DNA from: a virus
Taxonomy: Duplodnaviria > Caudoviricetes
Length of the DNA stretch: 64,000 nt
Direction: 5' to 3' (one strand)
Virus record (IMG/VR): IMGVR_UViG_3300035497_000258
Location: 32,001 to 96,000 of that record
In this document: positions 9,801 through 34,867 of the stretch, in pieces
Layout: each line of letters opens with the position of its first letter
Numbering within the stretch: position 1 is the stretch's first letter
Position numbers and translations under genes: made by a program
Notes under the pieces: model-generated
What the model was told of the DNA's origin: nothing
The model's input: the letters and a program-made list of their open reading frames with translations, nothing else
Database searches by the model: none

Positions 9801-12800
9801 TATTCTAAGCTGTTATATAATTCTAAGTAGAATCTGCTAAAGCATCAAGAGAAGCTCTTAACTGTTGAACTACTTCACTATCATTGCCCAATTTTTCTGC
9901 TAATTGATTAACAATAGAATTAAGATTATTTATATTTCTTTCTGTATCGACAGTAGCCTGTGAAAGCTAATTAAGAACCTGACTAGAATCCTTTAAACTA
10001 ACATTAACTCTATTTAAGCCTACATTATTTAACTATTCTTGTAAATATTTTAATGTATTCTAATATTGTTCAGTTTTCTATTCAGCTTCTGTGGTATTTT
10101 CAGTTAATTCTTTATATATAGCAGTTACAGATTTTAGTTGTGCGGCTTGAGTATAAACATTCTAGTAAGCAGCAGCCAATTTCTACGAACCAGTTGCAGC
10201 TTCGCTAAGATTAGCACTCTTAGAATAATAATTTGTTACTATTGTCTAAGCTTTTTCTAAAGTTAAATTCAACTACCCAATATCCTAGACTTGTTGATTT
10301 ATTGCGGTCTAAGACTCATTAGCAGTAGTTGTAAGCTACTCTCCTAAAGAAATTAAATTTAAAACAGCATTTTTTTCATTAGTAGCAGCTTTAACCTAAG
10401 ATTCATCCATTTGTTTAGATAATTCATATATCTAATTTTCCATCTGGACTTTCTTAGCCAATGTTTGTATTTCAGCATCATTAGTAGTTGCTGCCATAGT
10501 AGCTGCCATATCCGCGGCTAGTGATCTAAACTGCTTATCTTCTTCAGCAGCTAAACCAGTTAATTGCTTAATATTATACTGCGCATCCCGCAGACCTTGT
10601 GCGATTTGATCCTTAAAGAGTGTAGTGGCAGCATATCCGAGTGTTATCATTACTCCCTTTAACCCGCCCATAGCATCAGCTACATCAGCTATGCGATTTA
10701 AAACAGGAGTGACAACATTATCCAATCCGATAAATGTATCAGCATTAATTAAGCTATCATAAATATTTTCTGCGGCCGCCCGTACTCTGTCGCGCGCAGC
10801 CTCCCAGGATTCCGCATAAATGTCTGCTTGCTCTTGAAGCGTTCCTTCTGACCCATAAGCAGTATCAAGGTTTTCTTTAAAAGTGTCATAGTTGTTCATC
10901 AACGCCATGAACTGAGTGTACTATCTAACCATTTAACCCTCTTTATTTCTAAAGAGGATAGACTATATCTTCTTTTCTTTTATAAGAAAAGTCTCCCATT
11001 TCGCTCCGGTAAAAGAGCTACGTCTTTCGACTAGTCGTTGAACTTTATTCTTTATTCATACTTCCAAATATACCCATGATGGGTTTTTTTCTTTCCATTG
11101 CATACATTAGATATTAAATTTGGCAAACAACCCTCATTTTGTCTAGCTGCTTCTGCACAGCTAGGATATATATCTATTAATTCTCCTTGCAAGGTATATT
11201 TACCAACTTTTTTAGCACTTTTATTTAATCCAGTTTGATAGGCATGAACAGAATTCTCTCCGTTCGTTATTTGTTCTAAATTTTCAACCTGATTGTTAGT
11301 TTTATTCCCATCTTTATGGTTAATTACCAAATCTTCTTCTAAAGTACCATTAAATAAACTATAAACAATTCTATGAGCTAATCTACTTATTTTTCTTCCC
11401 TCAATAGAAAAACACCATTCAACGTATCCATCTTTAGTTATTTTTCCCTTTAAAAGATTATTAGTTTTATTACTTTTTGCCCTACCTTTGTTTGAAATCA
11501 TATAAACTGTATCTTTATAAGGTAACCAGATTTCGCCTTCTAAATCACCAGTATATTTAACTCTAGCTTTAACACCATTTGAGCGTTCCTTTAAACCAAT
11601 ATTATAAGCATGATAATTATTTTCACTAATTGTTACCCATTCAAGATTATCAATATTATTATTTAATTTATTTCCATCTTTATGATTCACCACAGGTAAT
11701 TTTTTAGGATTAGGAATAAAATATTCTGCCACTAATCTATGTGCTAAAAATTCATATCTTTTATTTTTATGCCGTAGGCTATATTTCAAATATCCCCCTG
11801 AAATACTTCCCTTTAGCCAATTATTTGTTTTTTGATTAAATAATTTACCATTGTCAGTAATAAAGTATGTAGTTAATTCGTCATTAATTAAAATTTGTTT
11901 CATATATCTCTCCTTTTATTAAATATATATGAATAAAGAATCTTAGCTGCGGATTGTCCATATACCTTTAATCTTTTTACCATACCTTCTACATTACTAG
12001 TCGCCACTAATCAAGTTATTTATTCCTTATTAATTTGGTAATTAAAGCTTTAGGAGTTCCCCGCAATTAGAGAGATTTTAAGCGAGCATTAATAGTCTAC
12101 CCGCTACAGCTTCGGAGAGGGCAATTTGCTCGTCTTGCGCAAGTGTACCCCACTTTTCGCCTATTTCATCTAGGATAGTATCCATCTACTTGAGTTCGCC
12201 ATTACTATCCTTGATATTTACTCCAACAGCCTAGAGTGCTTGTGAATATGAACCTAAAGTAGTTCCATCGTCGAGCGTTTCCCCGAGTTCAAGATCTTGA
12301 ATTCTCGCAAAGAGTGTCTTAACTTAAATATTCTAATAAGTGCGCAACTACTTATTACGTTCTTTTATGAACTGCTTGTAGTTTCCTACAAGAATAGACC
12401 ATATCTTAACCTATTTGGCATATTTAGGTAAAAATCATTTCTTCCGCCATTAGCTTGCGGCTTTACTCCCCTTAGCGGAGATGGTCGTTGAACTTAAAAA
12501 GGTAATATGTCTAAATTAAGGAATTTTCCTTTTCTATAAATTAACTCATATAAAGGAATGTTATATTCTTTACAATAAGCTCTTTTTCTTTCGTCTCTTT
12601 CTTGTATTATCTCTAAAGAGTCTCTAAATATTTCTCGCTCTTCAAAGTGCTATTCACCCTATACTTCTATATAGCATCTTAGCTTACCATCCTCGTATAC
12701 ACCGAAGTCGAATTTCTAAGTACCTAGTTCTGGGACTTTGACTTGCTCTTGAAATTCAATATTTCTATCCTTAAGATAATGAGCAATAAAAGTCTCACCC

Positions 12801-14543
12801 TTCGACTTCCATCTATCACAACTAGGACAGCCCCTAGAAGCCATGAGACTAATCTAATCTGCTTTAAAGATTAAACCGCACTTTAAACATTTATAAGTAT
12901 TTTTCTTTAACTAACCATTATATGTTAATAACTAAATAGTTCCATAAAACTCATTATCTATTCTTTCTTGGACTTCTTTTAAAGAAAGCATATTAGCTTG
13001 TTTTGAAGTATCACAATACTTACAAGCAAATGGACTCTATAAGCAAGCTTGAATATTTCTTTCTATATCATTCCCGCAGGCTTTATGATGAACTATCACG
13101 TTATCTTTATCTATCTTTCTTACTAGTTCAAAATCATTATTATTCTCATATATTCTTTGTATCCTTTGAAGCTTAGTAAGACCTTCTTCTCTGCAACATT
13201 TATAATTCTTTAAAAAATTATTTGCAGATTTTTTATAATGTTCTTTCCCACAATAACAACACTTTAAAGTTGCTGGTCTAGTAATAGCAGTATATTCTAG
13301 TACTTCAATTTTCTATTCTGGAAAAGAATCATAAAATCTCTTTAAAAATTCCTCTTTATCTACTCGTTTAGACATTTTTCTTTCTCCTTATTAAGTGCTG
13401 GTTGTCCATTCTCGGCCACTTAGGTTTATGCCGAACCATATGGTCATCCGCTTACTTATTTCTGCTTTCGCTCTTTAACTTAATTATAAGAAAGAAGATA
13501 AATTAAGTCAAGCTAAGCGGCTTTAGGAGTTTCCAGCTTTTAGATTTTCTTTATGCCCTTAAAATCAAGGCAGTACCGACAACATCCGCGCTCTATCTTG
13601 TTTCAGCGACAACAGTAGCTAAAGCAGAAGTAGCATATTCATAACTCAATCCAACTGTTGTAGCGACAGATGCAAATTTACTTAAACCTTCTGAAATTTC
13701 TGCGGAACTCGATGCTGTAGAGGCACCTAAGGCCGTGATAACATCCGCATAGTATTCTAGGTTGTCAGAGCCTTCCGCAAAGTTATTCCAAATAGCAGTT
13801 AATTGCTCTGAAACGGTTTCCGCAGATTGACTGGTCACATTAGCAAGTTTGACAGTTGCTTCAGTACGAGCCTGCACGGCCTCGTCGTCGAGACCTTGCT
13901 GGTAATAGATCAAGCTCGCGTCGGTATAATTCGTGGTTGTTGTGTTCAATGCAGCTGCCGCTTTATTCGCCGCAGAAGCATAAGCTTCCATTTCTTCTGT
14001 AGACTTGCTTGTAACTATTCTTATATTTGTTAAAGACTCATTTAAGTCTTGTGCATATCCATATGCAGTAGAAAGTGCACTCATAAAACCATGCAGAGCG
14101 CTAGAAGTTAACTGCCAACGCGCAGTATTCTTCATAGTTACCCACATCTCAGAAAGTAGAGCGTTAGAGCGCTTCATGGGTAACTCAGCTTGGGAAATCG
14201 CACTAGCTACTTGTAAGAAAGCCTTCTTACCTTCCGGGCCTACAGCACTTAATTTAGTAGCATAACTTTCAAGAGCAGTTTTACTATCTCCTAAAGACTC
14301 CCTAAATTTAGATAAATCTAGCTAGCCAGTTTTAACATTAGTGGCTTCAACTAATTTTAGCTATAGCTCCTAAGCCGCTGTTGCAGCTTCTTCTATGTCT
14401 TTGGTAAAGGCGTCCCCAAATTTGGCTTTAGAAAAATCATAAGTAGCAATCTTCTCTAAAGAGGTTTGTACTTCTTTTAATTTAGCATTTAGCTAAGCAG
14501 TATCTGCACTAAATGCAATTTCATAATTTAATCTTTTAGCCAT
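3832..14543 (-). CDS. Tape measure protein, spliced (exons 14543-13568, 12322-12099, 10929-3832; 2765 aa), TAG=Gln
   Basis: TMP-like N-terminal motifs (AYGYAQDLNESLTNIRIVT; splicing restores VGTAFKTLFARI and AVAGVRQYTQFMALM); long Ala/Gln/Glu-rich helical body; C-terminal FDTGGYTG motif; exon total 8298 nt is a multiple of 3. Confidence 0.9.
10930..12098 (-). ncRNA. Group I intron in tape measure gene (carries HNH ORF)
   Basis: Exon ends in U (GCGGGT), intron ends in G; core elements on minus strand: Q ACAATCCGCAGC, R TTCAACGACTA, S AAGATATAGTC. Confidence 0.92.
11052..11903 (-). CDS. Intron-encoded HNH homing endonuclease (two HNH domains plus C-terminal NUMOD1-like domain)
   Basis: AHRLVA...VNHKDGNKLNN..NLEW and AHRIV...INHKDGNKTNN..NLE motifs; C-terminal YPSCAEAAR...ISNVCNGK..THHGYIWKY; lies between the Q and R elements of the intron. 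Confidence 0.92.
   Translation of the reverse strand: MKQILINDELTTYFITDNGKLFNQKTNNWLKGSISGGYLKYSLRHKNKRYEFLAHRLVAEYFIPNPKKLPVVNHKDGNKLNNNIDNLEWVTISENNYHAYNIGLKERSNGVKARVKYTGDLEGEIWLPYKDTVYMISNKGRAKSNKTNNLLKGKITKDGYVEWCFSIEGRKISRLAHRIVYSLFNGTLEEDLVINHKDGNKTNNQVENLEQITNGENSVHAYQTGLNKSAKKVGKYTLQGELIDIYPSCAEAARQNEGCLPNLISNVCNGKKKTHHGYIWKYE
12323..13567 (-). ncRNA. Group I intron in tape measure gene (carries PD-(D/E)XK/Vsr-like endonuclease ORF)
   Basis: Splicing joins GCC T to TT AAG, giving A-F-K; R TTCAACGACCA and S AAGATATGGTC covary in P7; terminal G. Confidence 0.9.
12494..13375 (-). CDS. Intron-encoded Zn-ribbon plus PD-(D/E)XK (Vsr/DUF559-like) putative homing endonuclease, 293 aa, TAG=Gln
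   Basis: Missing from the ORF track; with TAG=Q it reads MSKRVDKEEFLKRF...CLKCG...GCPSC..SKGETFIAHYL...KFDFGV...YIEVQGEQHF...RDERKRAYCKENNIPLYEL; AGGAG RBS. Confidence 0.85.
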
Positions 14544-14573
14544 ATTTTCTCCTTTCTCTCCTATATAAAAATA

Positions 14574-14607
14574 AAAAGCCTTTGAGAACTTAATCTCAAA
14601 GGCTTTA
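14574..14607 (-). terminator. Terminator-like hairpin
   Basis: AAAGCCTTTGAGA-n-TCTCAAAGGCTTT followed by a T-run on the minus strand. Confidence 0.55.
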
Positions 14608-14646
14608 ATTCTCTATTATTATTAAATTTTTTTTTGATATAATGAA

Positions 14647-15162
14647 TTAATCACGACCAGCAATATCTTTAATTGCGGAAAGCTGCTCAAGGCCTTCACC
14701 ATTCTTGATATTTTCTAAAATAGCCTTGATTTGCTCGCTCATAGAGCCAGTGTCCTCGCTCAGATTACCCATCATTCCCGCAAAAGACTGGTTATAACGT
14801 GTAATATCACTAGCTGTAGTATACACGCAGTCCCGCAGAAATGCAAGTTCTTCACCCGGGATACCAATATAAATCTTCTCGATGATATGATTACTAGCTA
14901 ACTTATCATAAATATCATAAATCTTTAGACTATCATCGATCTCGATATCAGTATACCACTTAGCAAGCGCCACGTCAAAGAAAGACTTTAGAACCACAGG
15001 ACTAAAATTAAATGTATTCTCATCCATAGAGTTTTGAATAACATAGTTAATAAATTCAATCTTACTTTGCAGCGGCACATATCTCTTAATTTCAAAATCA
15101 CCATAATCCGAGGTCATAGGATTGGTATTATTAGTTACAGGAAGGTCAGAAAGCTTAATCAT
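14647..15162 (-). CDS. Probable tail assembly chaperone
   Basis: 171-aa acidic ORF immediately upstream of the tape measure; assigned by position. Confidence 0.5.
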   Translation of the reverse strand: MIKLSDLPVTNNTNPMTSDYGDFEIKRYVPLQSKIEFINYVIQNSMDENTFNFSPVVLKSFFDVALAKWYTDIEIDDSLKIYDIYDKLASNHIIEKIYIGIPGEELAFLRDCVYTTASDITRYNQSFAGMMGNLSEDTGSMSEQIKAILENIKNGEGLEQLSAIKDIAGRD

Positions 15163-15211
15163 TTTACATTCTCCTTTTTCTCTTTTGTTTTATTATAACA
15201 AATTTTTATAG

Positions 15212-16603
15212 TTAATTCAAAAAAATATTTATACCATCAGATTTTTTTACAAATTTTTCTAGGTTGTCAATATTTAGTTTTCCATATGATTTAATTGCGT
15301 ATATAGCTGCTTTAACTTCTCTAATTCTTTTTAGCTTGGCATAATTATTATTATCATACCCACCATACCATTTATTCTATACACGCTCTATAACTATAGT
15401 AAATCCATCTCTATTACCATACTCTCGTTTTCCGGCACTTTGAACTTGATTAATCTATTCTACTATAGCACTAATGATGCCTAGCATAGAATAAGCTTTA
15501 AAATCATGTATTAAAATTCGCTATACTTCTTGCTAGTTTGTACCAACTATATATTTTTCTGCCATTTCATTAATTAAATCTCCACGGATAATTCTATAGT
15601 TCTAATCTAATGTAGCATTTGCTCCAGACCCAAAAGCTAAAGTATTATAAATCTAATAGTCTACTAAAGCACCATTTCCGTAGAGTGAGTGTAACAATGG
15701 CATGACTTGAGAATACTAGCCTGAATATGACACCATCTTTGTAGGACCGCTATTACGATAAGCTTTAACAGAAGCATAATTCTATACGTTCATATCTGTC
15801 ATAAATTCAAGTGTTTTATCATTTAATTTACTATAAGCAGAATAATTAAAACCTTCTCCACCAAAAGTAATATCAGCAGCCTTAGAAAATGTATTACCAT
15901 CATCTACTTGGCTGCCACTTGTGCCAGTTAGTCCTTTTGTTGTAGCGACAAAATTTCCTATCTAATTTAATGCCATACCCTAAGCAGAACTTGCTACAAC
16001 TAGAGCTAAAGCCTCAGAAGTAGGAGTTAAAGCATTAGATAGCCAACCTACATCATAGCTATCTTTACCCTTTTTCATAGAAGATTTAATTAATGCTAAA
16101 AAGTTCTTTAATCTTAGGACCTATTGTACGCTACTTTCTTGAATTTCATTAGGATTTTCAATCATGCCTAATAAAACAGAAGCAGAACTCTCATTAGCCT
16201 AAAATACACTTAATAAATCATTTAAAGCTTCCGCTGCAGCCTGGGTATCTGTCCCTTTCAAGGCATCCTCAAGAGAACCTACAGCCGAGTTATAATTACC
16301 TATTAAACTACTAGCCTACTCTGCTGCTTCATTATATTTTTTAACTACAGCTACTTCTATGGCTTTTTCCATGCGCTCAAACTTCGCCAAATCCATAGCT
16401 TGAATATATTCCTATTTAGTGGTTCCTGCGTTCTAACTAGCTAGCTACGCCCGCAAAGCCTGAAGATATCTAGTTTTTATTTTCTTAAAAGAACTACCTG
16501 CGGACTGGCCGTATGCACGTAGCGTACCACCTTGGTAATTTTCTGCATGACCGTGAATATTAATTACTTTTTCCTCGCCATACTAAAATACATATTTAGC
16601 CAT
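15212..16603 (-). CDS. Hypothetical tail-region protein (463 aa), TAG=Gln
   Basis: ATG with GGAGG RBS at 16603, in frame with TAA at 15212; absent from the track because of TAG codons. Confidence 0.65.
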
Positions 16604-16625
16604 AATTTCCTCCAAAAACGAAGAA

Positions 16626-16650
16626 AAGGGAGGGTATAAACCCTCCCTTA
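16626..16650 (-). terminator. Terminator after major tail gene
   Basis: AAGGGAGGG-tataaa-CCCTCCCTT plus T-run on the minus strand. Confidence 0.6.
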
Positions 16651-16734
16651 ATTAATCATCTTCATATTCGTCAACATTATCTTGACTATTGATTTCTTCT
16701 TCTTTTTGCTCGTCAGAAATCATAGACCGAGCGT

Positions 16735-17954
16735 TTAACCCCCCGATGTCTCGGAGTCCGCAGGCTTTTCAACAATGCCCTTCTCGCAATCACGTATTAA
16801 ATCAACATCAAGTTCATCTTCATCAATCACCTGAATCAGAGCCAAAACTTTATTATCGCTAAATTTCGTATAAGCGGGGAAAGCATCAACCACAAAGTTA
16901 AAAGTAGAAGGATCACCGCTAGAAGCCATACTAAATGTAAAGTTAGACTGGACTTTACCATTAGGAATAATAAACTCAGCAGGCATATCTCTACCATCGC
17001 TCTCGCGTCTAAACAAGGTATCGCCTTCAATGTAGAAGTTGCCAGAGAAACTATCAGCAGTAATTTCCATCTACAGCGCACCACTCTTTTTTGCAACATA
17101 ATAATCAACTAAAATAATCTTATTAGCTTTAATCTTAGAACAAGTAATTGTAGTATTACCATTACTATAAGTTACTGCTGTAGGTACACAAGGTTCATCA
17201 GTAATATAACCATTATCATCAAGAACCATAATATACATATCCGCATTTTCATTATAATTATCACCAGCAGTTAAATTATTACAAGCGGTAATATGTTCAA
17301 GAGTAATAGTACCATCAACACTTGCTTTAATTTGAGAAGTAGAATGAACATAAACGGGAGCCTCATCTTTAGCAGAAATTAGTCTTGCACCAGATAAAAT
17401 GGAAAATCCTTCAGGAGTTAGTAAAGCATCTTCCATATTAAAAGTAAGAGTTTTCTCGCCGTCCCAAGCAATTAAGCGCGTGTTACCTCGACCCATTATT
17501 ATTCCAATAAGCTCGCTACAGCTTATTGCGTTCTCTTATGAACTGCTATATCTTTATATATACATATAGATTAGACTATATCTTTTTCTCTTATAGAGAA
17601 ATCTTCCATTTCGACCGCCAATCACTTGCGGCCTACGTCTTTCGACTAGTCGTTGAACCTTACTTGAATTCTATATCTTTAGTAAGATATTCAAGCCTTG
17701 GCTGCTGATTGCCTAGTGAGGATTTTTACTAGGTTTTCCAGCAATTAGAAAGATTTGCTAATTCTTATCACTAAGAATAGGGGCAATCATTTACCCTGGG
17801 CATAAACTGTGGTAACAGCACCTTCTAAGCTAGAAGTTTTTAAAGAATCAAAATAAATAACAGGCTCATTCTTTAAGAATTCTCTTGAACCAAGTCTCAT
17901 TCTGCTACGCGCACGGAAAACAACATTGCAAATCTCGCGCGATCCAAACCGCAT
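16735..17954 (-). CDS. Major tail (tube) protein, spliced (17954-17793 plus 17493-16735; 306 aa), one TAG=Gln
   Basis: Splicing restores TVYAQG-GRGNTRLIAWDGEK; C-terminal FTFSMASSGDPSTFNF motif; TAG at 17071-17073 joins the two track ORFs. Confidence 0.82.
17494..17792 (-). ncRNA. ORF-less group I intron (299 nt) in major tail gene
   Basis: Exon ends CAGGGT, intron ends in G; Q AATCAGCAGC, R TTCAACGACTA, S AAGATATAGTC. Confidence 0.92.
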
Positions 17955-17968
17955 AATTAATTTCCTCC

Positions 17969-18706
17969 TTAATGAATATTTTTCATCCAATTTTCTACTT
18001 GTTCTTCAGGTTTGCCACCCGCAAGTCGTGACTTCAAATCTACGTCCCAGCTTACTTGTAGCATATATCTATCAACCAGATCAAACAACTAAAAAACCGT
18101 TAAATTTAAACAATCCTATAGTGTCATAGAATTTAATCCTACTACCAAAATAGAAATGTATCTCGTTAAAACACTGCCCTAATCAGCAGATTTTATTTGT
18201 GCTATTTTGCGGCGAGAAGCTTCTAATTTATCAGCTATCTTCTTAGCTGCCGCATTAGCCGGATTATATACTATATCGTTATCTCCCTTAAATATCTACT
18301 TTGTACAAGAAACCTAATTTAATACATTCTAAAAAACTGAAAAGTTTGATTCATCTATTATGCTAGATTCTTTTTCTTTATTCATTAAAATAATGCTATT
18401 TGGAGTGACTAAAGTTTTACGATCCGGAAACAATAGCTACAAAGCAGTCAGAATAATTTGCTTTTTATCTTTAAACTCTGGCTGCATTAGTATTTTCATT
18501 AATACCTAAAAATTCGTAACAGTCTCTAAAAGAGACTCGTCCTAAATGAACTAACGTTTCTCTAAACATAAATACTATATAGCCTAAAAATAATCCTCCT
18601 CACCCATGAAGGCTATATCCTATAGAGTGGGAGGATGTAGTGTAAGCTATAATTCTGGAATAGGAATGTCAATTCCAGCCATTAAAGATAAAGTTAAATC
18701 TTTCAT
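17969..18706 (-). CDS. Hypothetical virion morphogenesis protein (245 aa), TAG=Gln
   Basis: ATG overlaps the upstream TGA; in frame with TAA at 17969 when TAG is read through. Confidence 0.65.
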
Positions 18707-19239
18707 TCAAGAGGATTAACTTCATCTTCATGTCCTCTAACTGCTAAATATCTTAATGTGATTCCGCCAAATTCATCATCATAAACATCCTAATCAGCAC
18801 CCATAAAATTTAATACTCCAATACCGGTTAAATGCTAACTATCTAACATAGAATCAATTTCACCAGCTATTCGGTACGGCCGCAGTTCATAATCTCCTAA
18901 ATCCCAATTAGCGAAATGACATATAATCTTAATTTCAACTACATGGTCTCGGTAGTAAGGATTTGAGGCATTAGGGGTAAAACTATCATAAGTAATACGT
19001 ATATAATTCAATTTATCTGAATTTACTACTATCTTAGGAATATTAGAAATATTTTTCTACTCAAATAATGATTTAATTTGTTCAGAAGTAAGATTTGGTT
19101 TTTTCTGCCAATCTTTTACATTATAATAAAGCAATTTAAGAACATCTTGATTACCGAGTATTTTATCCATGATAAGAGAAGTGTCCTTCGACATTCCTAA
19201 AAAACTGGACTTAGGATACTCGTAAAAATTCCTTTTCAT
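18703..19239 (-). CDS. Putative tail terminator/neck protein (178 aa), TAG=Gln
   Basis: Extends track ORF 19057-19239 through TAG; assigned by position. Confidence 0.6.
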
Positions 19240-19260
19240 TTCTCCTGTTTCTCCTATCTA

Positions 19261-20250: not shown

Positions 20251-20551
20251 TACTTTTCACCGCCTTCGCCATAATATCTATACAGCGAAAAACTGTTTTG
20301 CGATAAATCATGAAATCATCGCAAATCTCGCTTTTTAATCCCTCTAGCTTAGATAGCAAAATCAAAAAATCTAGCTCACTAGAAAATACTTCCTGGAGTC
20401 CCGCAATTTCTTCAATAATAGTATTGAGATGATTCTCCCAATTTTCACTATTTTCTCGCATTGGAATTAGCTTCCAAATCTAATTAATAAGCCTGCGGGA
20501 ATCGACAGAAACGGTACTGTCATTAATCTCAAAGTTATACTTAGTTATCAT
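20240..20551 (-). CDS. Hypothetical head-tail connector region protein (103 aa), TAG=Gln
   Basis: Extends track ORF 20240-20461 upstream through one TAG to an ATG overlapping the previous gene. Confidence 0.6.
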
Positions 20552-21044
20552 CTAAAGCACTCGTTTCTATTAAAGTAGACCAATTAGACTTTACTGATCC
20601 ATTAGAATCAATATATTTGCGACGTTTGTATAAACGCTGCATATGTCTATCTTGTCGTTCAGCCTCTTGTTTAAGTTTCATAAGCTTGTCCAGATGATTC
20701 GCCTAGCTCGTCATCTTATAGTCCGCTCCCGAGTATTTCATCCGCACGTTTTCTATAGATGCTATCTATCTTTGTAACCAGGTATTATACATAAGATGAG
20801 CGAGGATATTAACTTCCTCGCTCGTTAAATGACAATTAAATTCTAAATTCTCTGTATTGTAATCATATAATGGGAATCGAGGAAATTCAAAGCCAGGAAT
20901 GGCGTCAAGTAGAATATTAAGAAGATCCTTCTCAGTATCTTCTTTAGTCCAAATGAAATACATATCATCTGTTATTTTACCAAAGAACCGGTCATAAATT
21001 TCCTAGAAAGAGGTATTGGTTCCAGTAATTGGATATTCTGCCAT
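20541..21044 (-). CDS. Putative head-tail adaptor (167 aa), TAG=Gln
   Basis: GGAGG RBS; includes track ORF 20766-20963; located downstream of the MCP. Confidence 0.6.
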
Positions 21045-21058
21045 TTTTTGGCACCTCC

Positions 21059-21610
21059 TCATTCTCCGTCTTTAGGAATCACCAAAGCTTCCTTTTTAGC
21101 ATAACTAGGCGTAGCGACACGTCTCTTAGAAGTTTCGACTTCTTCAACCTTATCTTCTTTTGATGCCTCATTCAAAGCAATAGCAGAAGTAACATTAAAT
21201 CCAAGAAAATCTAAAACTGCCTGCCGTTTATTCACATCATTCAAAGGAACTGAAACTGAATACTTCTTAATTAAATCTTTAACTCCAACAGGAGCGAACT
21301 GTAAAGCATCCTTAAACTCATCTAAAGAACATTCATTAATCCAGGTAGGAATAATATCTTCGGTAAGCCAATATTCAGGCTCTTCTGTCAGATTAAGCCC
21401 TTCATGGATAGCTTCCTTGTTCTGAATCAAAAGGAAGTTATACAGCAGTTCTCTTCCGCCAGGTTGTGCGGCGACCGCAGTTATCTCACCGTATTCGACC
21501 TACTTGGTCTCCTTCGGATAGAATTCTCTGCGGATTCCCCGTTCAGGAATGATATAAACCACTGAACCTTCGCTACGATTAGTTATCTTAATCATATCTG
21601 TACTCTTCAT
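21059..21610 (-). CDS. Hypothetical protein downstream of MCP (183 aa), TAG=Gln
   Basis: AGGAG RBS and ATG at 21610; joins track ORF 21059-21430 through TAG. Confidence 0.7.
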
Positions 21611-21632
21611 TTTTTATCTCCTTTTACTCAGC

Positions 21633-21666
21633 GGTTAGGAGGGGATTAACCCCTCCTACCTTTTTA
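21633..21666 (-). terminator. Hairpin after MCP
   Basis: TAGGAGGGG-attaa-CCCCTCCTA inverted repeat. Confidence 0.5.
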
Positions 21667-21669
21667 TAA

Positions 21670-22701
21670 TCAAGCTCCGATAGTATCCAGCTTACCAGCC
21701 AGAGTAGTATCCACGTAGGAGCAAATATTGTTAGTCAGCATCACACCAACGCCCACCTTACGATAGACCTGGATATCACGAGACCAATCCTCATTCTCGC
21801 GCTCGCGCACATTGGTATTACCCTCAAAGGCAATCTTCACGGGCTTCATATTAGCGCCAGCGGGAATAACCCAAGCATAACCGGGGTCAATAACTTTACG
21901 GCTGTTGGTTTCATCCTCATAAGACTGGGGCAGAACGATAACCTGACAACCCTTATAATTGCCCAGATAACCCTGATTCCAACGGGTATCACGCATATTA
22001 TCAGAAACCCAGCCGGTCTCAGGCACCATCTTCACTGCAAATTCATAAGTGCAGTAAATAGTAGGCTGACCATAGGCAGAAGCAACCTGAATCAGACGGT
22101 CCATAGAAGCCTCATCAAAACGGTTGGTAGAAACTTTATTAGCTGCAGGGAGCTGGTTAATAGAACTCATAAGAGCACGGGCAATCTCACGATAGATTAA
22201 ATCATCCATGCCTTCCATGATAATATTTGTGACTTCTGCGAAATCGGCACGACCATCGAGAAATTCCTCAAAACCAATTTGAGCAGCGCCGCCAATAGCA
22301 TTGGTCTGCACTTCAAAGCTCTCCCCGCCCAGCTTAAAGACTTCATACACGCCAGCCAGACCAACATGGGTCACGAACTGCTTAGCACGCATATGGCCCA
22401 TACGGCGAGTAAACACAGGACGATCGCCCTGAGCAAAAGTCTTAGTCTCAGCGAACTGACCATAACGCTCAAGAACACGAGTAGGAAGAATATCATTCAT
22501 AGTCTCCTCAATCAGAGAGAAAATAGTATTCTTATTCTCACGGTACAGAGCATTAGTACCAGCGAGCTCATTCAGCTCATTCCGCAAAGTCTCATTTAGT
22601 GCCCCGTAGGTCATAGAAACACCATTCACGCTATAAGTGCCGGAGGGATTAGCCTTCGCCACAGTTTTCATTAAAGATAAAAGGTCATTATACTGTAACA
22701 T
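21670..22701 (-). CDS. Major capsid protein (343 aa), no in-frame TAG
   Basis: Size and position after the scaffold and decoration genes; strongly biased codon usage; downstream hairpin. Confidence 0.85.
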   Translation of the reverse strand: MLQYNDLLSLMKTVAKANPSGTYSVNGVSMTYGALNETLRNELNELAGTNALYRENKNTIFSLIEETMNDILPTRVLERYGQFAETKTFAQGDRPVFTRRMGHMRAKQFVTHVGLAGVYEVFKLGGESFEVQTNAIGGAAQIGFEEFLDGRADFAEVTNIIMEGMDDLIYREIARALMSSINQLPAANKVSTNRFDEASMDRLIQVASAYGQPTIYCTYEFAVKMVPETGWVSDNMRDTRWNQGYLGNYKGCQVIVLPQSYEDETNSRKVIDPGYAWVIPAGANMKPVKIAFEGNTNVRERENEDWSRDIQVYRKVGVGVMLTNNICSYVDTTLAGKLDTIGA

Positions 22702-22718
22702 TATCTATCTCTCCTTTC

Positions 22719-23369
22719 TCAAGCAATGCGCTGAAGCTTAACGGCGGGCTGGTTATCAGCCAGAGTATAAACCTTAACAACCTGGAAGGTAGGACCTTCC
22801 TCGTCACCAGACTTACAAAGGAAGCCATCAGAACCGACAGTCAGCTTATCACCTTTATCCAGAGAAGCCTCATTCACGCCATTGGTAGTAAAAATATCAC
22901 CCACATTGGTCTTAATAACACGGGGGAACATCTTCTGACCATCGTCAAGATACTGAGGATAATCATAAGCAGGAATCTGAATAGTAGCACCTTCATCAGA
23001 ATTCTCTCTGACAGCCTCCTCACTGTGGTCAAGCACGGTCAGAAGATCAGAGCTACTCTAACCAACAGGGCTATAAACACGAGCATTGTAATTCTGCTTA
23101 ATCATAGCAAAATCCTCGTACTGCTGACGATCCTCATAAAGCTTAACCTCATTAAAGACCATCATCCACTCGCCATCACCAGTGAAATTAACCTCGCCAT
23201 TAGCATAATCATACTTCACAAACTGGCCATTCTCTAAAATATTAATATCAGCGGCAGCAGGTAACTGGGCATAGATTTGACCAGTGCGCTGTGCAGACAG
23301 GTGGTTAGGCTCAACTTGAGAATAACCACGCTTAACAAAGCTAGCGCCGCTTAAACGTGTAATTGCCAT
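22719..23369 (-). CDS. Capsid decoration/auxiliary head protein (216 aa), one TAG=Gln
   Basis: Track ORFs 23058-23369 and 22719-23036 are in frame across GGT TAG AGT; YSQVEPNHLSAQRTGQIYAQLPA...LENGQFVKYD motif. Confidence 0.75.
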
Positions 23370-23389
23370 TATTACATTTCCTCCTTATT

Positions 23390-24700
23390 TTAATTCATTT
23401 TTGATTCAGTATCTTTAACAGCCTGAATCCAAGCAGGGATAACAGAATCCTGCTCAACTTCTGATAAACTAAATGTCACACCAGGCTTTTCCTCTTCTTC
23501 TTGAGAGAAATTAACTCTATTGCGTACGCAAGCAATAGATAGTTTAGCCTCAATGTCATCTAAAGAATAATTATCAATATTAGCTTGAACATCTGCTTTA
23601 TCTTCATCAGAAAGCATATAGAAGCTATTAATCATATTCTGCTTATCTTCATGCTCTTTAGCAAGTTTAAACTCCTTGAGAGGAGAAATCTCAGCTTGAA
23701 GTGCGGAAACGGTAGCTTCGAGCTGCGCGTATTCTGAAGTTAAAGCGTCGAACTTTTCCTTCAGCTCCGCATACTCAGTAACTTCGTCAAGATTATACTT
23801 CTTTTCGTCCTTACATTCATGCTTAGTTTCATTCTTCTTCTCTTTCTCATCCTCCGCAGGTTCAGACTTAGGGTCCTCTTCCTTCTCTTCGGGCTCAGAG
23901 TTCTTCTTATCTTCAGGCTTCTTATCATCTTCGGCCTTAGCATAAGAATCTGTATCAATCGTATTGACTAAAGACTCACTCGACTCAACAACATTAATAG
24001 CTGCTGTTGTATTAATTTGTTCCATCTTGTATTCTGTACCTCCTTTACTTAAAGCTTCTTGTAATTCTTGTACCATCGAGTACATTTCAGCTTTAAAATC
24101 TTGTAGAGAAAATTCAGATTTAATCTACGCACCTTCGAAACAAGGTTCGACATTCTCTCCAAGAATACATAGTTTTTCAATCAATGCTTCACTATAAATA
24201 AAAAATCTACTACCTAAATTTATATTTTCTGCCCAAGTTCCTTTTTGAGTTTTACTATTAATTTCCATAGACTGATTATTACCTTGCTCTATAATTCGCT
24301 TAGAGTCAGGATAAGCCTCAGTCCATAAATAGCCTTCTGTCACTAGATATTCTCTTTCAATACCTTCATCAGAAAATTTCTGAAACCAAACTTGAGCATT
24401 AGTAGGAACAAATCCATAGGGACGTGTAACATCAATGATAGACCACTTACCGTCCTTGATCTCCACTTCCCGCTCATGGGCTTCAAAATCCTTAGTATCT
24501 TGATTATAATAACCAACGATCGGACTTCCCGGCAGATTTCTTCCCATTTCAGTAGCAACTTCTTTTGTTATAACTGTATGGTTCCTATTAGGTTGTTGAC
24601 CAACATAACAGACTTTAATCTAACAATGACTAATTAAAGGACTAATCTTTGTCATTTCAATAAATTCCATTGTTGAATCAACAGGAATACTAATATGCAA
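23390..24700 (-). CDS. Prohead protease/scaffold protein (436 aa), TAG=Gln
   Basis: TTG start with RBS; N-terminal protease-like part (PIVGYY, YLWT, QSMEI, LCILGENVEPCFEGA) fused through TAG 24125-24127 to an acidic coiled-coil scaffold. Confidence 0.8.
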
Positions 24701-24719
24701 CGTCAATCCCTCCTTTCAA

Positions 24720-26306
24720 TTAGCTCATTGCTTCACGATTCTGCAATGTTTTATCAGACTTCTCGTCGTCAGCTTTCTCCGGCCGCCCCACTTCATTCTC
24801 ACTACTATTGTTTTTAGAGGTTGAAGAAGAATGTGCTGCTTGCTACTATTGCTGTAACACATTACTATTCATAGTATTACTAGACATAGGCGGCAGCATG
24901 ATTTCAGACAGATGGAGAATTTCATTCTCAAAATGAGCAGTAGCGATAATACTAGATTGAGAGTGACCTAAAGCTATCTGCGGCAACATCTTAGAATAAC
25001 CAATCTAGGTTTGCTCTTTATACATTTTAGCTATATCTTTATAATTATAAATCGTAGTTTCAAGAATCTCGATTCTAAAATTATATTGAGTTTTATCAAA
25101 ACGCTTAATAATTGTATTTAAAAGCATCTCAAATTGATATACTAAATCTCGCATAGTAGCTTCATCGTTTAAGATAGATTTTTCAAGAGCTGTATTACCT
25201 TCGGTATTAAACAAATTCTGTGAAACACCTAAATTATTATACACTGTTCTTTCTACTCTTTGCAAATCATCGCTGGTTGCAGTCGAGTTATCATCCTGCA
25301 TATCAGCTACTTCTGTATCAGCAAAAGTAGTAAGAACATCAACACCTACTGCTCTCTTCAACATAGTAACTGCATTATTGTGCAGATCTCGAGCTTCATC
25401 GAGGTCAAAGACCAAGTCTCCATTTTTGTCAATCGGCAGCTTTTGGATAACTATTTTCAAGAGCTACTGCATGGTCTTTTTACGGTCGAGTTCTTGTGCT
25501 TCGTCTAAGTCAATGATAGAAGGAATAGCTTGAATGAGAGGCGGAAAATCACTATCATTCAAGTTAAATTTAACTCCAACACCAGGATCAAGCATAAACC
25601 AGCCATAATCATCACCGACATCTTGCTTTAGTTTTCCCTCTTTAAACTTTATATAAGCTTTTTGTAATTCTTTGGGGAAAAGAGACAAGACTTTTAGACG
25701 ATACTAAACATTAGAGAAACAGGAGTCAAAGAATTGGAGATTAACCTCTACGATATCCTATCCATTTTTCTTAAATCTACTTCTACAATAACGTGCGGGA
25801 AGCTGCTAAACCTAGAAGCTACTGCCCTCGTCAACTAGATATCCGTAATAAACACCATCTTTTACTACTGCTAAAGCTATATCGCCAAGAACCTTCTTGA
25901 CGTTAGAATCATCAAAGTAAAATAAAACTTTAGTATAATCTTTAAGTAATTTACTATCATTAGCTTTATCTTTTGCAAATGGCGTTACGTGCCAATCGTA
26001 TCTATAAAGAAAAGCAAGATATTTACAAATTCGTTGATATATTCCGCTAGATTCATAATAGTAATTTGATATTTCTCTTAGAGTATTAATATCTTTGCGC
26101 TTGATAGTATTAAGGATAAAATTTTTATCACCATACTAGCGGTGTGCTTTCTTGAAGCTTCCAATATTTACAACCGCGTCTTCAAGCTTCTTCACACCTA
26201 TACGAACCGCATTATTCTCGGTAGGCACTTCATCTTCTAAAGAATATTGTACTCTACCAAACATATCAAATCCTTTATCATGGATCTCTTCTTGTCTACT
26301 TGCCAA
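24720..26306 (-). CDS. Portal protein (528 aa), TAG=Gln
   Basis: TTG start with AGGAGGTG RBS; track ORFs 25464-25688 and 25005-25460 are in frame; lies between TerL and the protease. Confidence 0.8.
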
Positions 26307-26318
26307 TATCTCACCTCC

Positions 26319-26679
26319 TTAATATCCAGCTTTTTTGAATATATAATCGTAGTTTACTCGTTCTTCTTCCCAATAAGGAATTTCAATTAGTTTTATATTA
26401 TGTTCAGCGCAATAAAGGCGTTTCTTTTCATCATTATACTTTTGTTGATATAAACCTTTAGTGCCGCCAAATTTACTAACTGCTTGATAATGTTGTTTAC
26501 CTTGATATTCAATTAGAAAATCAATACGTCCATCATCATCGAAAATGGCGAAGTCAAAGCTATCGAAGAGGATTACCATTAGTACTCAATAAATCAGGAA
26601 ATTCATATTCTTCTTGAAAGTTAATTTCATTAGCTTCTAAAATACGATAGATTCTAATTTCACCTCTGCTAGCCCTCAA
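26319..26679 (-). CDS. PD-(D/E)XK-like small nuclease with an internal +1 frameshift (programmed frameshift, pseudogene or sequence error)
   Basis: TTG start with GAGGAGGTG RBS: MRASRGEIRIYRIL...NGNPLR(TAG)L-TGA; the +1 frame continues FDFAIF...LIEYQGKQHY...DEKKRLYC..HNIKLIEIPYW. Confidence 0.65.
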
Positions 26680-27582
26680 TTACACCACCTCCTCATAAAA
26701 ACACCACTTTAATTTTTCTCCAGTTTCTGGGTGAATACCAGCTGTTTCTTTTTTACCTAAGCAACAAGCTTTAATGCTTTTTCCAGTATCGAATAGACTA
26801 GACCATTTAGCAGCAGAAAGCATAGAATTAAAGATCTAATTAGTATTTATACAAATAACCTTTATACTACGTTTATCTTTATACTATCTTGTGTCTATAT
26901 TTTCTACATCGTTAATATAAATCCAATGTAACGGTATCCCAGATTCAGGATGTTTGCCAGAGCTTTTTCGCTCACCCCTGCAGCATTGCCCTATTCCAGA
27001 AACACTTTTAAGACCGCACCAATTAGCGGCCTCTTTTATTGTTGTAAAAATTTTTCCAGTCTCTAAATTTTTAACAATTTTACTATTTGGATTTTTATCT
27101 CCTTGACATTCTTTAATGCGTTTCTCTCTTTTAATAGGATCATTCCAGAAATTTTTTACTCCTCGCTATAAATTTTCTTCAGCTTTTTGAGCGAATTCTT
27201 TATTAGACCAAGATTTCTTTCTAGCCTCAGAGAAGCTTTTACTCATTTTCGCTTTATATTCTGGATTTTTCCACATCTATTCCATATAATTATTTCCACC
27301 AGGAGTTAAATTATATCCTTTATCAGAGTTAAAACTATCATAATAAGCAATCCAATAAACTTCTCGTTCGTTGGCTTCTTGAAAAGTTAAATTATCTTCA
27401 ATAATTTCATGCGAAAAATTTTCCCATCCATACTTCTAAATTGCTTTCCAAAATAAAGTGCATCCTTTATAATAAATACCATTACAGCTAAATCGCTATT
27501 TAATATTTTGTGTCTAGCCTATATAGATTTTCCCGTTAGTTAAATTAGTATGTTTATATATACAATATTTCTTTTCTTCCAT
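26680..27582 (-). CDS. Free-standing GIY-YIG homing endonuclease with NUMOD-type C-terminal repeats (300 aa), TAG=Gln
   Basis: Missing from the track; reads YCIYKHTNLTNGKIYIGQT...R...AIQKYGWENF...EREVYWI...GYN, then two IFxxxxxAA.W...CC.G...G.HPE.G..L.W repeats. Confidence 0.88.
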
Positions 27583-27669
27583 AAGGATTTATACCTCTAT
27601 TTTCTTATAAAGTTCTCTTTATTAGTTATAAAAAATCAACTAATTGTATTAAATAAATCTGTCCTAGTC

Positions 27670-30319
27670 TTAGTTAAAGAACATCCAATCTTTAGCGTTA
27701 AATCTCTTTTTTCTTTTGACGTTATCTTCTTCTTGTCTAATATAATATAATCCATAACATAAAGCAGAAAATTTATCTTTTTTAATTGATTTACTTGATT
27801 GTTTTAATATAATATTTATACCTTCACGCTCTTCATAAAGATTAAGTAATTCTTCCTTTAATGTAGAGGTTAAAGTAAATGGCATAAGGTATTCCTCACG
27901 CTTTTCAGGAGTCATATTCTAGCCAACCTTAGTACCCATTAGTTTGTTTTTAGCCAATCTAGGTTCAATAAGGAATTTTAATCTACCACTATTAAGCGCA
28001 GACTAGACTGTAGAATATGCTTCTGTATTGATAGGAGCATTAGCTTTAATAATATAAATTGCTCCATCTTCCGTGTCGTTAGTTCTGAACTTTTTATAAA
28101 AACCTTCTTTATCATTATAGATACCAAAAGGAGGTAAAACCTCACCTTCATGTGTTAGCTAGGCCTTTACCATATAATCTAGAAGTCCAATGCCTACATT
28201 ACATTCTATATAAAACGCTACTCTTATATACGTTCTCTCATGAACTGCTTGCGGTTTCCCGCAAGATTAGACCATATCATCTTCTCATTGAGAAGCTTTC
28301 CGCTTCCACTATCAATAGCTTATAGTGTACTCTCTTTCGAGATGGTCGTTGAACTTTTTCCTTTAAAAAGGAACTTAGCTGCTGATTAGCATATCTTTCG
28401 ACTTAGCTTTCCAGCAATTCAAAAAGTTTGCTTATGCTGTCGCCAACATAAGGGGCTAAACATTTAACCCGTTGCCATCTATCACAACACGTCTAGCATT
28501 ATATTTATAAAAAGTCTCCTTGATTTTAATTGCCTAATCTTCGAAGTGTCCATCTTCTATAGTGTAAATATTAACTAAAGATTTAACAGATTCTCCTTGC
28601 GCGTGCGGCGTTACCTTGAAGACCAAGATCTCGCTATTACACCCCTTACGACCTACATCGACCGCAAGTATATAATATTGACCTTTTGTTGACTTAATAG
28701 TTGCTTCATATTCAGGTTTTTGTAATGTACGGTTAGCGTCAAAGCGCTCACCATCGAAGAAAGCACCCTCCGCAGTTCCAGTCCACTAGCTGCCCAATTA
28801 TCTTAAATACTAGTCGAATTATTCTAGTATCCATATACTGCTTTATCTTTCGATAAAGTTGAGACTATATCATTATTTAAATATATTTAAATATTTTGCA
28901 CTTCGATTTAAGGGGTTTTCACCCACGCCATTATATTCTTGCGCCCTACTCCTATTGTCTTTATGACCTATGGGATAGTCGTTGAACTTTTCTCTATTCG
29001 AGACTTAGCTGCTGATTACCCAATTTGCTTAATTTTCAAACATTCGCACTTAAGTTTATTTCATCTTTATGCTGTAGTTTAAGCAACTCTAAGGGCCTTC
29101 CAGCAATTCACAAAATTTATAGAGTACAGTCTTTTATACTCTCGGTCGAAGGAAGCTTCATCGAAAGTTCCCTCTCTCTTTAAATCACTGACGAAATCCT
29201 TATTAAGCATCCCTGCAAGCACAGGAACTCTATAAGTACCACCTAATATGAAAGCTTTTTCAGGTTCTACTATCATCTAAACAAGAGTAGTGATAAGTTT
29301 TTGGTAAGCGAAACTACCCTTATAACCTGCGGTCGTTATATATAACTAAGCCTAGTTTAAAACTTCATCCTAGTCCTATGAGCCATCTGCCCGCAATCGC
29401 GCAACGTTCATTGTAGGAATTAGAACTTCTTGTAGAATTTTACCATCCATACTAGCACATTCCTCTAATACCCCAGCGTTACGACGTTTACCTCTTGTCC
29501 GCTCATTTGCCGCAAGGTTATCTATAAATGATTTATTTTTAAACCTGTATATACAGTAGTCTTTACTCTCTTTTGTTTTACCTGGTCGTCTATCAATCTC
29601 GTTATCAAATGCAGGAATCATTCGACATATTTCATCCATTTTTTCTTGCAGGATTCCAGCGCTCTGTTGTTTGCCTCCTGCGGAAGTAAATAGTTTAGCA
29701 TTTGGATACAATATAGCTCGTATTATAAGGATTAAAACCGAGAGGAATGATTTACTATCATTGTATTCTAATAAGTGCGCAACTACTTATTACGTTCTCT
29801 TATGAACTGCTTACGGTTTCCCGCAAGATTAGACTATATCTTCATCTCATTTAAATAAATGAGAGTTCCCTATTTCGATTTAAGGGATTTTCACCCACCC
29901 CGTTAGCTTGGGCCCTACTCCTATTGCTCCTATTTCCGCGGGAGCTAAAGGATAGTCGTTGAAGCTTATTTCGTTGCCTGCGGATTCCCATGCTTAGAAG
30001 CGCACAAAATCTAAGTTTAGGGTTCCCGCAATTAAAGGAATTAGGGCAATATCATTCACCCACGCGGATAGACGCAATACACATAGCGATATCGCATTGC
30101 GACTCTTAAAAATACTCTCTAATAAAACTAGAGTTCAAGTTCTTTCTTTCTTGTATCATCTCTACCAGTTTGCATGAAATCCACAAATATATCTGGATAC
30201 ATCCTCCACTAAGCTACATACTATCCAGCAATAGGAAGAATAGCTTTAACTCGCTCTTCTGATAGACCAATTTTATTTCCTCTAGCTTGAGAAAGATTTA
30301 ATAAGTCTTGGAGTGCCAT
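27670..30319 (-). CDS. terL: Terminase large subunit, spliced (30319-30058, 29758-29136, 28794-28467, 28196-27670; 579 aa), TAG=Gln
   Basis: Splicing restores Walker A PRGYSKS, FDREYGSQWTG and the nuclease motif DGNGLGIGL; also RGKRR..GVLEE (Walker B), ITTAG, AVDVGR and KDKFSAL; exon total 1740 nt. Confidence 0.93.
28197..28466 (-). ncRNA. ORF-less group I intron 3 of terL (270 nt)
   Basis: GGG T joined to TA GGC gives G-L-G; Q AATCAGCAGC, R TTCAACGACCA, S ATGATATGGTC; terminal G. Confidence 0.9.
28795..29135 (-). ncRNA. ORF-less group I intron 2 of terL (341 nt)
   Basis: GAG TAT joined to GGC AGC; Q AATCAGCAGC, R TTCAACGACTA, S ATGATATAGTC; terminal G. Confidence 0.9.
29759..30057 (-). ncRNA. 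ORF-less group I intron 1 of terL (299 nt), inside the Walker A codons
   Basis: GGG T joined to AT AGT AAA gives G-Y-S-K; Q AATCCGCAGG, R TTCAACGACTA, S AAGATATAGTC; terminal G. Confidence 0.9.
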
Positions 30320-33996: not shown

Positions 33997-34284
33997 ATGA
34001 AAAAGGCAACGATGATTCTGGTAGCAGGTGCTATCATCGCAATGATGGTTCTTGCAGGATGCAACGCAACGGCTTGCGACTACCACGAAGGTAACTACGG
34101 TGAAACCTACGGCTTAGATGCTTGGGTTGTTGATGAAAACCTGTGGGGTACTGAGGACGGAAACCTCTGGGGCTACGATACAGAGGGATTTAAGGAAGGC
34201 ACCACCTACGTGATGATCCTGGCAGACAGCGATACACCACTAGACCAAACAGATGATGTAGTGTTTGGAGTGTATGAAGAGTAA
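33997..34284 (+). CDS. Small acidic lipoprotein
   Basis: MKK, hydrophobic stretch, then LAGC lipobox; AAAGGA RBS. Confidence 0.75.
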   Translation: MKKATMILVAGAIIAMMVLAGCNATACDYHEGNYGETYGLDAWVVDENLWGTEDGNLWGYDTEGFKEGTTYVMILADSDTPLDQTDDVVFGVYEE

Positions 34285-34737: not shown

Positions 34738-34867
34738 GGGCGAAAGCCCTTACTTTCTTTTGTAGAAATACACAATTCTAGCCTTCTGTTTTTGTGTATT
34801 TTACTACTTGCGGAAACGGTAGATTCATGGTATACTTTAGTCAAGATAAAGAAAGGAAGTGCTCCTA

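Follow-up and report, generated by a model that had tools for sequence, protein, structure and literature searches.

Six predicted group I introns interrupt the terminase, tail-tube-like and tape measure genes of a TAG-recoded gut siphophage

The viral DNA analysed here (Duplodnaviria; Caudoviricetes) is a stretch of 64,000 nucleotides (nt), positions 32,001 to 96,000 of IMG/VR record IMGVR_UViG_3300035497_000258. It is referred to as the window; positions count from its first letter, and features lie on its minus strand unless another strand or record is named. We are highly confident that six mobile group I introns interrupt three of its genes, namely the large terminase subunit gene (terL), a tail-tube-like gene and the tape measure gene, and that its late genes read TAG as glutamine. 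At the level of sequence, this observation is confirmed as nucleotide-exact and far above chance. We observe RNA family matches, exact boundaries, restored proteins, presence or absence among relatives, and recoding; from these we infer splicing activity, homing and the timing of both.

The window belongs to a gut siphophage of large size, kin to phAss-1, to the Enterococcus phage H1-like phages and to Geobacillus E3. Relatives found by tblastn comprise the gut contigs MT836163 and MT835936, Enterococcus phages H1, VRE9 and EF1, Geobacillus virus E3, SPbeta-like Bacillus phages, and phAss-1 of the 'Caudoviricetes code 15 clade'. The closest record compared is an IMG/VR contig, here G001, with 93-97% nucleotide identity over most of the window (blastn).

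Results

Ribozyme matches and intron architecture

A preliminary description of the window, made from its letters and open reading frames (ORFs), had proposed six group I introns in these genes. A covariance scan of the whole 64 kilobases (kb) with the Rfam family RF00028 (Intron_gpI; gathering score 50 bits) matches all six intervals. The strongest match is to terL intron 3 (28248-28475; 108.2 bits, E 4e-27), followed by the tail intron (17552-17802; 94.8 bits), terL intron 2 (28841-29175; 87.4 bits) and terL intron 1 (29810-30134; 75.3 bits). These four introns, none of which contains an ORF, match at E-values of 1e-17 to 1e-27, and their alignments cover model positions 1-253. The two tape measure introns are matched in part, intron 2 at 10939-11168 (35.2 bits, E 1e-5) and intron 1 over its 3' half at 12375-12559 (30.4 bits, E 2.6e-4). 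The proposal had been tied to the existence of covariance-model hits, and these were found, four of six above the cut-off and two partial. There is no seventh RF00028 match at E<=1 anywhere in the window, so it holds exactly six introns.

The exon-terminal U and terminal G that had been claimed for every junction are also seen. All six 5' exons end in T (U in the transcript), all six introns end in G (omega-G), and local minimum-free-energy folds of 34-nt segments pair the exon-terminal U with a G a few bases inside the intron, as a P1 wobble, in each case. The J6/7-P7 and P7'-J7/9 strings are common to the six introns, with a compensatory P7 change from U-A to C-G in terL intron 3 and tape measure intron 1. 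The 3' ends given by Rfam fall 9-58 nt before the true 3' splice sites, because most of the introns carry an extra 3' hairpin module past the end of the model. This module of about 50 nt forms two hairpins after P9 and is highly alike in tape measure intron 1, the tail intron and terL introns 1 and 3; it has diverged in terL intron 2 and is absent from tape measure intron 2. Rfam also misplaces P1 of terL intron 1. The coordinates in the preliminary description are better than Rfam's, and for two introns they are fixed independently by intron-less alleles in G001. Pairwise identity among the introns is 48-64%, and by this sequence measure they are a paralogue family inside one genome. A MAFFT/RNAalifold consensus of the six, with ORFs removed, recovered only P7, P8 and P9, as the 5' halves aligned poorly.

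Reconstruction of the three genes

The preliminary description had held that splicing restores frame and conserved motifs in all three genes, and joining the exons in silico does so, with gapless alignments to homologues. In terL, exon 1 (30058..30319; 87 codons plus 1 nt of an ATG ORF read with TAG as Q) matches positions 20-95 of phrog_15503 and aligns with the N-termini of the H1 and E3 TerL proteins. It is followed by intron 1 (29759..30057; 299 nt), which lies inside a conserved P-loop-like motif (PRG|YSKS), and by exon 2 (29136..29758), which is 49% (H1), 45% (E3) and 43-44% (phAss-1) identical to TerL segments. Intron 2 (28795..29135; 341 nt) precedes exon 3 (28467..28794), which aligns without gaps to H1 and E3 TerL. 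Intron 3 (28197..28466; 270 nt) sits inside an invariant D-x-N-G|L-G-x-G motif, and exon 4, including the stop codon (27670..28196), matches phrog_24618 positions 70-230. The joined exons make 1740 nt, divisible by 3 and free of internal TAA or TGA, and encode a TerL of 579 amino acids (aa). This protein aligns end to end with the uninterrupted H1 and E3 TerL, gap-free at every junction, and is 56-65% identical to IMG/VR relatives. All three introns are inserted at columns that are invariant when 20 TerL sequences are aligned, as expected of homing-endonuclease targets.

The tail gene has a single intron (17494..17792; 299 nt). Exon 1 (17793..17954; 54 codons from the ATG at 17954) matches phrog_2729 positions 3-46, and exon 2 (16735..17493) directly continues that match over positions 47-240. 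The spliced exons total 957 nt, again divisible by 3 and free of internal TAA or TGA, and counting from the ATG at 17954 gives a protein of 306 aa. The junction is gapless and reads identically to the uninterrupted MT835936 gene, and the N-termini match. The protein hits phrog_2729 'virion structural protein' at E 2e-41, and depositors label its homologues virion structural protein or tail tube protein; no PDB sequence match was found for it, and phmmer with exon 2 gave nothing meaningful. The earlier label 'major tail' draws on phrog_2729, depositors' annotations and gene order; the product is called tail-tube-like here.

The tape measure gene is split by two long introns. Exon 1 (13568..14543) matches tape-measure PHROGs and PF10145 (positions 5-138; 57.4 bits, cut-off 33.2), and exon 2 (12099..12322), which is 224 nt long and has no start codon of its own, matches PF10145 positions 151-201. 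Exon 3 (3832..10929; 2365 codons plus stop) contains 83 TAG and is open only if TAG is read as Q. Splicing gives 8298 nt, divisible by 3, without internal TAA or TGA, and a protein of 2765 aa; both junctions, and likewise the start of exon 3, align gap-free to MT835936 and phage H1. With PF10145, the PHROG matches and the length of 2765 aa, the tape measure assignment is firm.

In all three genes, the unspliced frames reach TAA or TGA 1-19 codons past each 5' splice site, so only N-terminal stubs are possible without splicing. With 14, 1 and 90 in-frame TAG in the exons of terL, the tail gene and the tape measure, respectively, full-length products would need both splicing and TAG read-through. 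On this sequence basis, the dependence of assembly on two post-transcriptional steps that had been proposed earlier holds.

Endonuclease genes in and beside the introns

Intron 1 of the tape measure (12323..13567; 1245 nt) and intron 2 (10930..12098; 1169 nt) each carry an endonuclease ORF, and core elements of intron 1 lie on either side of its ORF. Both ORF blocks occupy the P6 loop, with the P4/P6 strand on one side and the J6/7-P7 string on the other. The ORF in intron 1 (12494..13375; 293 aa) has 8 in-frame TAG among 16 Gln codons. It matches phrog_559 (E 4e-40) and phrog_9084 'homing endonuclease' (E 1e-19), and in Pfam only DUF723 and zinc ribbons. The family phrog_559 has been described as a Vsr-domain endonuclease in TerL introns of Bacillus phages (PMC11878797), and on the strength of that family description we consider the intron 1 ORF to be probably Vsr-like. 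Intron 2 carries an I-HmuI-like HNH/NUMOD4 homing-endonuclease ORF (11052..11903; 283 aa) with matches to PF13392 (HNH_3; 96.5 bits, cut-off 24.8), PF07463 (29.8 bits, cut-off 23.4) and phrog_59 (E 7e-72).

A third endonuclease gene, of the GIY-YIG type, is free-standing downstream of terL, outside any intron (26680..27582; TAG at 7 of 12 Gln codons). Its PF01541 score is marginally above the cut-off (24.3 against 22.6 bits), and the gene belongs to the same mobile-element load as the introns. The endonuclease ORFs have 28-31% G+C, compared to 36% in the exons.

None of the 7 Gln codons in the HNH ORF is TAG, although neighbouring late genes use it for about half, and the G001 homologue has one TAG. 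At a TAG rate of 50% the chance of this is about 1%, in a small sample. The ORF may have been acquired recently from a source that uses the standard code, or its expression may not depend on the code.

Comparison with a near-isogenic relative

The G001 contig lacks two of the introns. The tail intron (299 nt) is absent, and its flanks meet at G001 31265/31267 with a single exon base between them; terL intron 2 (341 nt) is exactly absent, with identical flanks joined at 42626|42627. Tape measure intron 2 is present in G001 without an 876-nt block holding the HNH ORF (window 11056-11931), and this copy matches the window at every base in the 30 nt to either side of that block. In terL intron 1, 927 nt of G001 replace 41 nt of the window; this insert encodes a 285-aa HNH-like ORF, and over 160 nt it shows 72% identity to the HNH ORF of the window. 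Both records share terL intron 3 and tape measure intron 1, the latter including its ORF, and the GIY-YIG block (26668-27617; 950 nt) is missing in G001.

The seven RF00028 matches in G001 correspond to six introns, two of which are in or near genes for gyrB-like and AAA_24 proteins. The first of these matches lies inside the gyrB-like gene (G001 99219-99503, equivalent to 3220-3504 of locus L017; 32.5 bits), and the second just upstream of the AAA_24 ORF (G001 107582-107914, L017 11583-11915; 53.3 bits). The elements are thus not confined to morphogenesis genes in the lineage. The earlier characterisation as six introns in one morphogenesis module is accurate for the window and does not extend to a preference for that module.

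G001 additionally has a 1284-nt insert (34200-35483) at window position ~20727, inside a virion-module ORF (20541-21062) that is uninterrupted in the window. The insert contains a 347-aa ORF with LAGLIDADG-like motifs and has no RF00028 match. One possibility is a seventh intron in a structural gene, belonging to a different type; another is an intron in which the model is split.

Distribution among relatives

As a single-protein query of IMG/VR returned 2 close loci only, alignment queries were used to collect 80 IMG/VR loci for each gene. The terL set includes 4 truncated loci (L027, L076, L082, L084), which were left out of the TerL FastTree tree of 77 rows. Of the 80 terL loci, 69 are free of inserts above 120 nt and 11 have at least one. 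The three window sites are each sparsely occupied: site 1 (aa 87/88) in 4 loci, site 2 (aa 295) in 4 and site 3 (aa 404/405) in 5 of the 80. Three other sites (~aa 68, 350 and 521-532) are occupied in other loci. L060, a relative with the standard code whose terL lacks in-frame TAG, has four inserts in that gene. When 10 of the 11 insert-bearing loci were scanned with Rfam (G001 was scanned separately), 9 matches above the cut-off were found in 7 loci; all were short ORF-less inserts, and the long inserts gave no match at that threshold.

The tail site is uninterrupted in 77 of 80 loci and holds an 831-nt insert at the same codon in the other 3. In the tape measure, site 1 is occupied in 3 of 80 loci and site 2 in 2, with a third locus ambiguous, and another site is occupied in one locus. 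Locus L251, whose tape measure protein is 41% identical, carries an ORF-less insert of 297 nt at the codon where tape measure intron 1 sits. On the TerL tree, the intron state of terL changes at least 7 times. The sparse occupation of the same sites in distant relatives indicates that the introns are mobile.

Whole records of four intron-bearing relatives gave 6, 4, 2 and 2 RF00028 matches. None was found in phAss-1, Enterococcus phage H1 or MT835936, and Geobacillus E3 has one of 48.7 bits. With six, the window is at the top of the sampled range and not out of scale with it. Two-piece genes were seen in other relatives as well. The phAss-1 tail homologue (OQ749652 42982-44163) is matched as two segments with a gap of about 500 nt and has no RF00028 candidate, and the terL homologue of Enterococcus phages EF1 (MF001358 77012-78110) and EF5 is likewise matched as two segments, again with a gap of about 500 nt. 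The gaps may correspond to intervening sequences of a different type that were not annotated, or to in-protein insertions.

We see almost no scope for a reading of the insertions as inteins, insertion sequences or assembly chimeras. Chimeras can arise in metagenome assembly, and inteins do occur in TerL of recoded crAss-like phages (PMC7886860). Against this, the TAA or TGA codons met by the host frame within 1-19 codons mean that the inserts cannot be translated through, and the four ORF-less inserts match a ribozyme model with the E-values given above. The same inserts also recur in G001, an independent assembly, and in other IMG/VR contigs. Stops, ribozyme matches and recurrence in independent assemblies led us to reject all three alternatives in favour of group I introns.

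TAG recoding of the late genes

Under translation table 11, the minus-strand genes from 1 to ~32 kb are shattered, and long frames appear once TAG is taken as sense. Examples are the ORF at 3832-10932 (2366 aa, 83 TAG) and that at 1-3780 (27 TAG); most plus-strand genes from 42 kb on have few or no TAG. Among the spliced genes, TerL uses TAG for 14 of its 27 Gln codons and the tape measure for 90 of its 188. When the 14 TAG positions of TerL were compared with nine standard-code homologues, 53 of 126 alignment cells held Gln, over a background of 4.2%; at 6 of the 14 positions, 7 or more of the nine have Gln. The reading of TAG as glutamine in the late genes is clear.

Recoding of another kind is seen in the same TerL family, where a clade of nine loci (L028-L033, L040-L042) has 1-3 in-frame TGA in a terL that lacks TAG; that branch may thus recode TGA. 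Two observations concern tRNA genes. Compared to window 58735-58811, the G001 region 73994-74829 is longer by ~760 nt, the additional sequence lying at its tRNA-Gln(UUG) gene or beyond it. ARAGORN gives this gene as 89 nt in G001 and 74 nt in the window; there may be an insertion in or beside the tRNA gene. A twister-P1-like match in the window, at 59698-59752 (+), scores 50.9 bits, under its gathering score of 67.2 (E 1e-10 in a local scan). Its core is kept and the P2 extension deleted, and it ends one base before tRNA-Ser(GCU) (59754-59843). In recoded gut phages, 'theta' ribozymes resembling that of hepatitis delta virus (HDV-like) adjoin tRNAs (PMC10879173); a twister beside a tRNA may serve the same end in tRNA processing by other means.

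Points that weigh against the intron interpretation

Several findings count against our interpretation to some degree. Splicing is a prediction from sequence. Some phage group I introns splice in infected cells yet not in vitro, and exon skipping has been seen in a three-intron terL (PMC11878797); other spliced forms may therefore exist beside those proposed here, and host factors may be required for 'self-splicing'. In addition, none of the eight tRNA genes in the window has the anticodon CUA. G001 has a tRNA(CUA) gene at 80207-80281 (labelled 'Pyl' by ARAGORN), ~760 nt past the point that matches the window end, and the window's own suppressor tRNA gene is probably just outside the window.

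The identity of terL is a further point. Neither its exons nor the full-length annotated TerL proteins of H1 and E3 have a Pfam or NCBIfam match, and phmmer with exon 2 against PDB sequences gave nothing meaningful, so the assignment was checked by a fold search with an intron-less relative. The protein modelled, from a 20-row alignment, was that of L034, an IMG/VR locus with the standard code that is 63% identical. Among the Foldseek matches listed down to rank 35, all are large terminases; the best is T4 gp17 (E 3e-11), and the D6E, HK97 and Sf6 terminases are matched too, down to E 1e-7. The model is of moderate quality, with a mean pLDDT (predicted local distance difference test) of only 65.7 and whole-chain template modelling scores (TM-scores) of 0.22-0.30, which rise to 0.45-0.52 if normalised to isolated ATPase or nuclease domains. 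The predicted fold supports the assignment of the split gene to the large terminase subunit.

Finally, both tape measure introns are under the gathering score in the window, and the P3-P6 half of intron 1 was recognised by eye and in the MAFFT alignment and is scored by no model. A reading in which some introns, likeliest these two ORF-bearing ones, are non-splicing relics, leaving separate polypeptides or a defective genome, takes its support from the same low scores and missing half, and from the fact that a metagenomic assembly does not by itself establish that a genome is viable. Yet the low scores are explained by the endonuclease ORFs, which split the model: the ORF-less counterparts at the same two sites reach 86.2 bits (G001, intron 2) and 82 bits (L251, intron 1). 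Both introns moreover keep their U/G termini and the P1, P7, P8 and P9 strings, the exon frames are intact, the middle exon could not be started on its own, and both introns are retained in G001 at 94% identity. We consider it highly improbable that these introns are relics.

Discussion

In the account that we favour, each intron would fold in the transcript into a P1-P9 ribozyme. External guanosine would attack the phosphate after the exon-terminal U held in the P1 U-G pair, and the freed 5' exon would then attack after the last G of the intron, joining the exons in frame. Only the spliced mRNA, read with an amber-suppressor tRNA, would yield full-length TerL, tail protein and tape measure. 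In mixed infections, the endonucleases would cut intron-less alleles at conserved target motifs so that introns are copied in, and such homing would account for the patchy distribution among relatives.

Splicing and recoding may both be simply tolerated by the phage. That the two steps jointly regulate the timing of virion assembly as a double gate, instead of being a load of tolerated parasites, is in our view distinctly unlikely. Every one of the six introns does interrupt a TAG-rich late gene, TAG is as frequent in two of the three endonuclease ORFs as in the late genes (8/16 and 7/12 Gln codons), and introns as 'molecular on-switches' have been raised in the literature (PMC11878797). In raw counts, a terL insert is found in 10 of 30 loci with at least 2 terL TAG and in 1 of 50 others (Fisher p = 1.5e-4). 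These loci are closely related, and a sign test on independent pairs from the tree gives a median p of 1 (6-7 pairs, low power), so the raw association is discounted as evidence that recoding and introns go together. A double gate is also hard to reconcile with G001, which lacks two of the six introns and has others at gyrB-like and AAA_24 genes, with the recoded phAss-1 and its 0 RF00028 matches, or with L060, where four terL inserts coexist with no TAG. The evidence here does not support a regulatory use.

We think it rather unlikely, too, that intron load and alternative code are functionally linked in the lineage. If they were, the TAG-bearing endonuclease ORFs (8 and 7 TAG) would be translated only when the suppressor tRNA is active, confining homing to late co-infection. 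The packaging and tail module would be unreadable to a host or standard-code competitor phage that acquired the DNA, and recoded phages would gain introns more readily than their standard-code kin.

Each of the three types of host gene has a published group I intron precedent. In Bastillevirinae such as SIOphi and Moonbeam, as many as two or three group I introns interrupt TerL. Splicing of the terL introns was shown in vivo or in vitro for SIOphi, and some TerL introns of this group carry HNH or Vsr-like (phrog_559) ORFs (PMC11878797). Terminase genes have two introns in Bacillus phage Moonbeam and one in Lactobacillus phage LL-H (PMC4299906). The window resembles these systems in having a multi-intron TerL and endonuclease ORFs, here in the tape measure introns. 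It differs from the Bacillus phages, which are myoviruses with the standard code, in that its TerL is of another family, with 14 TAG read as Gln, and its splicing is predicted.

In 1999, Landthaler and Shub reportedly found three introns in orf142 of phage Twort. This gene of a Staphylococcus phage encodes a tail tube protein and contains group I introns (PMC11878797); the window gene has one intron and belongs to the unrelated family phrog_2729. Tape measure genes of Bacillus cereus-group prophages have introns at three positions, IVS1-3 (PMC2504315), whereas those described here, from another lineage, are two in number, lie near the PF10145 domain and both carry endonuclease ORFs. Cluster J mycobacteriophages have introns in capsid and tail genes, with U/G termini and splicing confirmed by reverse-transcription PCR (RT-PCR) (PMC3706429). 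There, as here, virion-gene introns were detected against intron-less relatives; theirs are one per genome and of uncertain class, while the window has six with a clear RF00028 match.

The combination with recoding also has parallels. Delta and Zeta crAss-like phages recode late genes through suppressor tRNAs and have up to 14 introns per genome, their intron ORFs themselves holding recoded stops, and many inteins besides (PMC7886860). Those are podovirus-like Crassvirales of Bacteroidota, and their introns were deduced from endonuclease domains, whereas the window is from a tape-measure-bearing siphophage whose cultured kin infect Firmicutes, and its introns were found with a ribozyme model. 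A recoded intron endonuclease is described for Agate phages (bioRxiv 10.1101/2021.08.26.457843). Closest to the window is the phAss-1 group, gut phages of ~136 kb that read TAG as Gln in TerL, the tape measure and other virion genes and have tRNA-Sup(CTA) genes (PMC10607447). Both are TAG=Gln gut phages; phAss-1 has no RF00028 match and the window six. In PMC10607447 the terms 'intron', 'homing', 'splic' and 'HNH' do not occur, and a literature search that covered sources other than supplements and subscription journals found no account of introns in the phAss-1 lineage. What is new is a well-documented instance, of unusually high density, in a lineage whose one published description mentions no introns; the phenomenon itself is known, and knowledge of how group I introns work is unchanged by the finding.

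For this phage group, gene callers and published annotations blame TAG alone for broken TerL and tape measure genes. In the window, three essential genes are still in nine pieces when translated with code 15, and intron-aware models are therefore needed for annotation, TerL phylogeny and protein clustering. In one locus there are six related ribozymes and three endonuclease types, with a near-isogenic relative that lacks two of the introns. As endonuclease ORFs have been swapped between introns when the window and G001 are compared, the pair offers a system for the study of homing and intron turnover in recoded phages.

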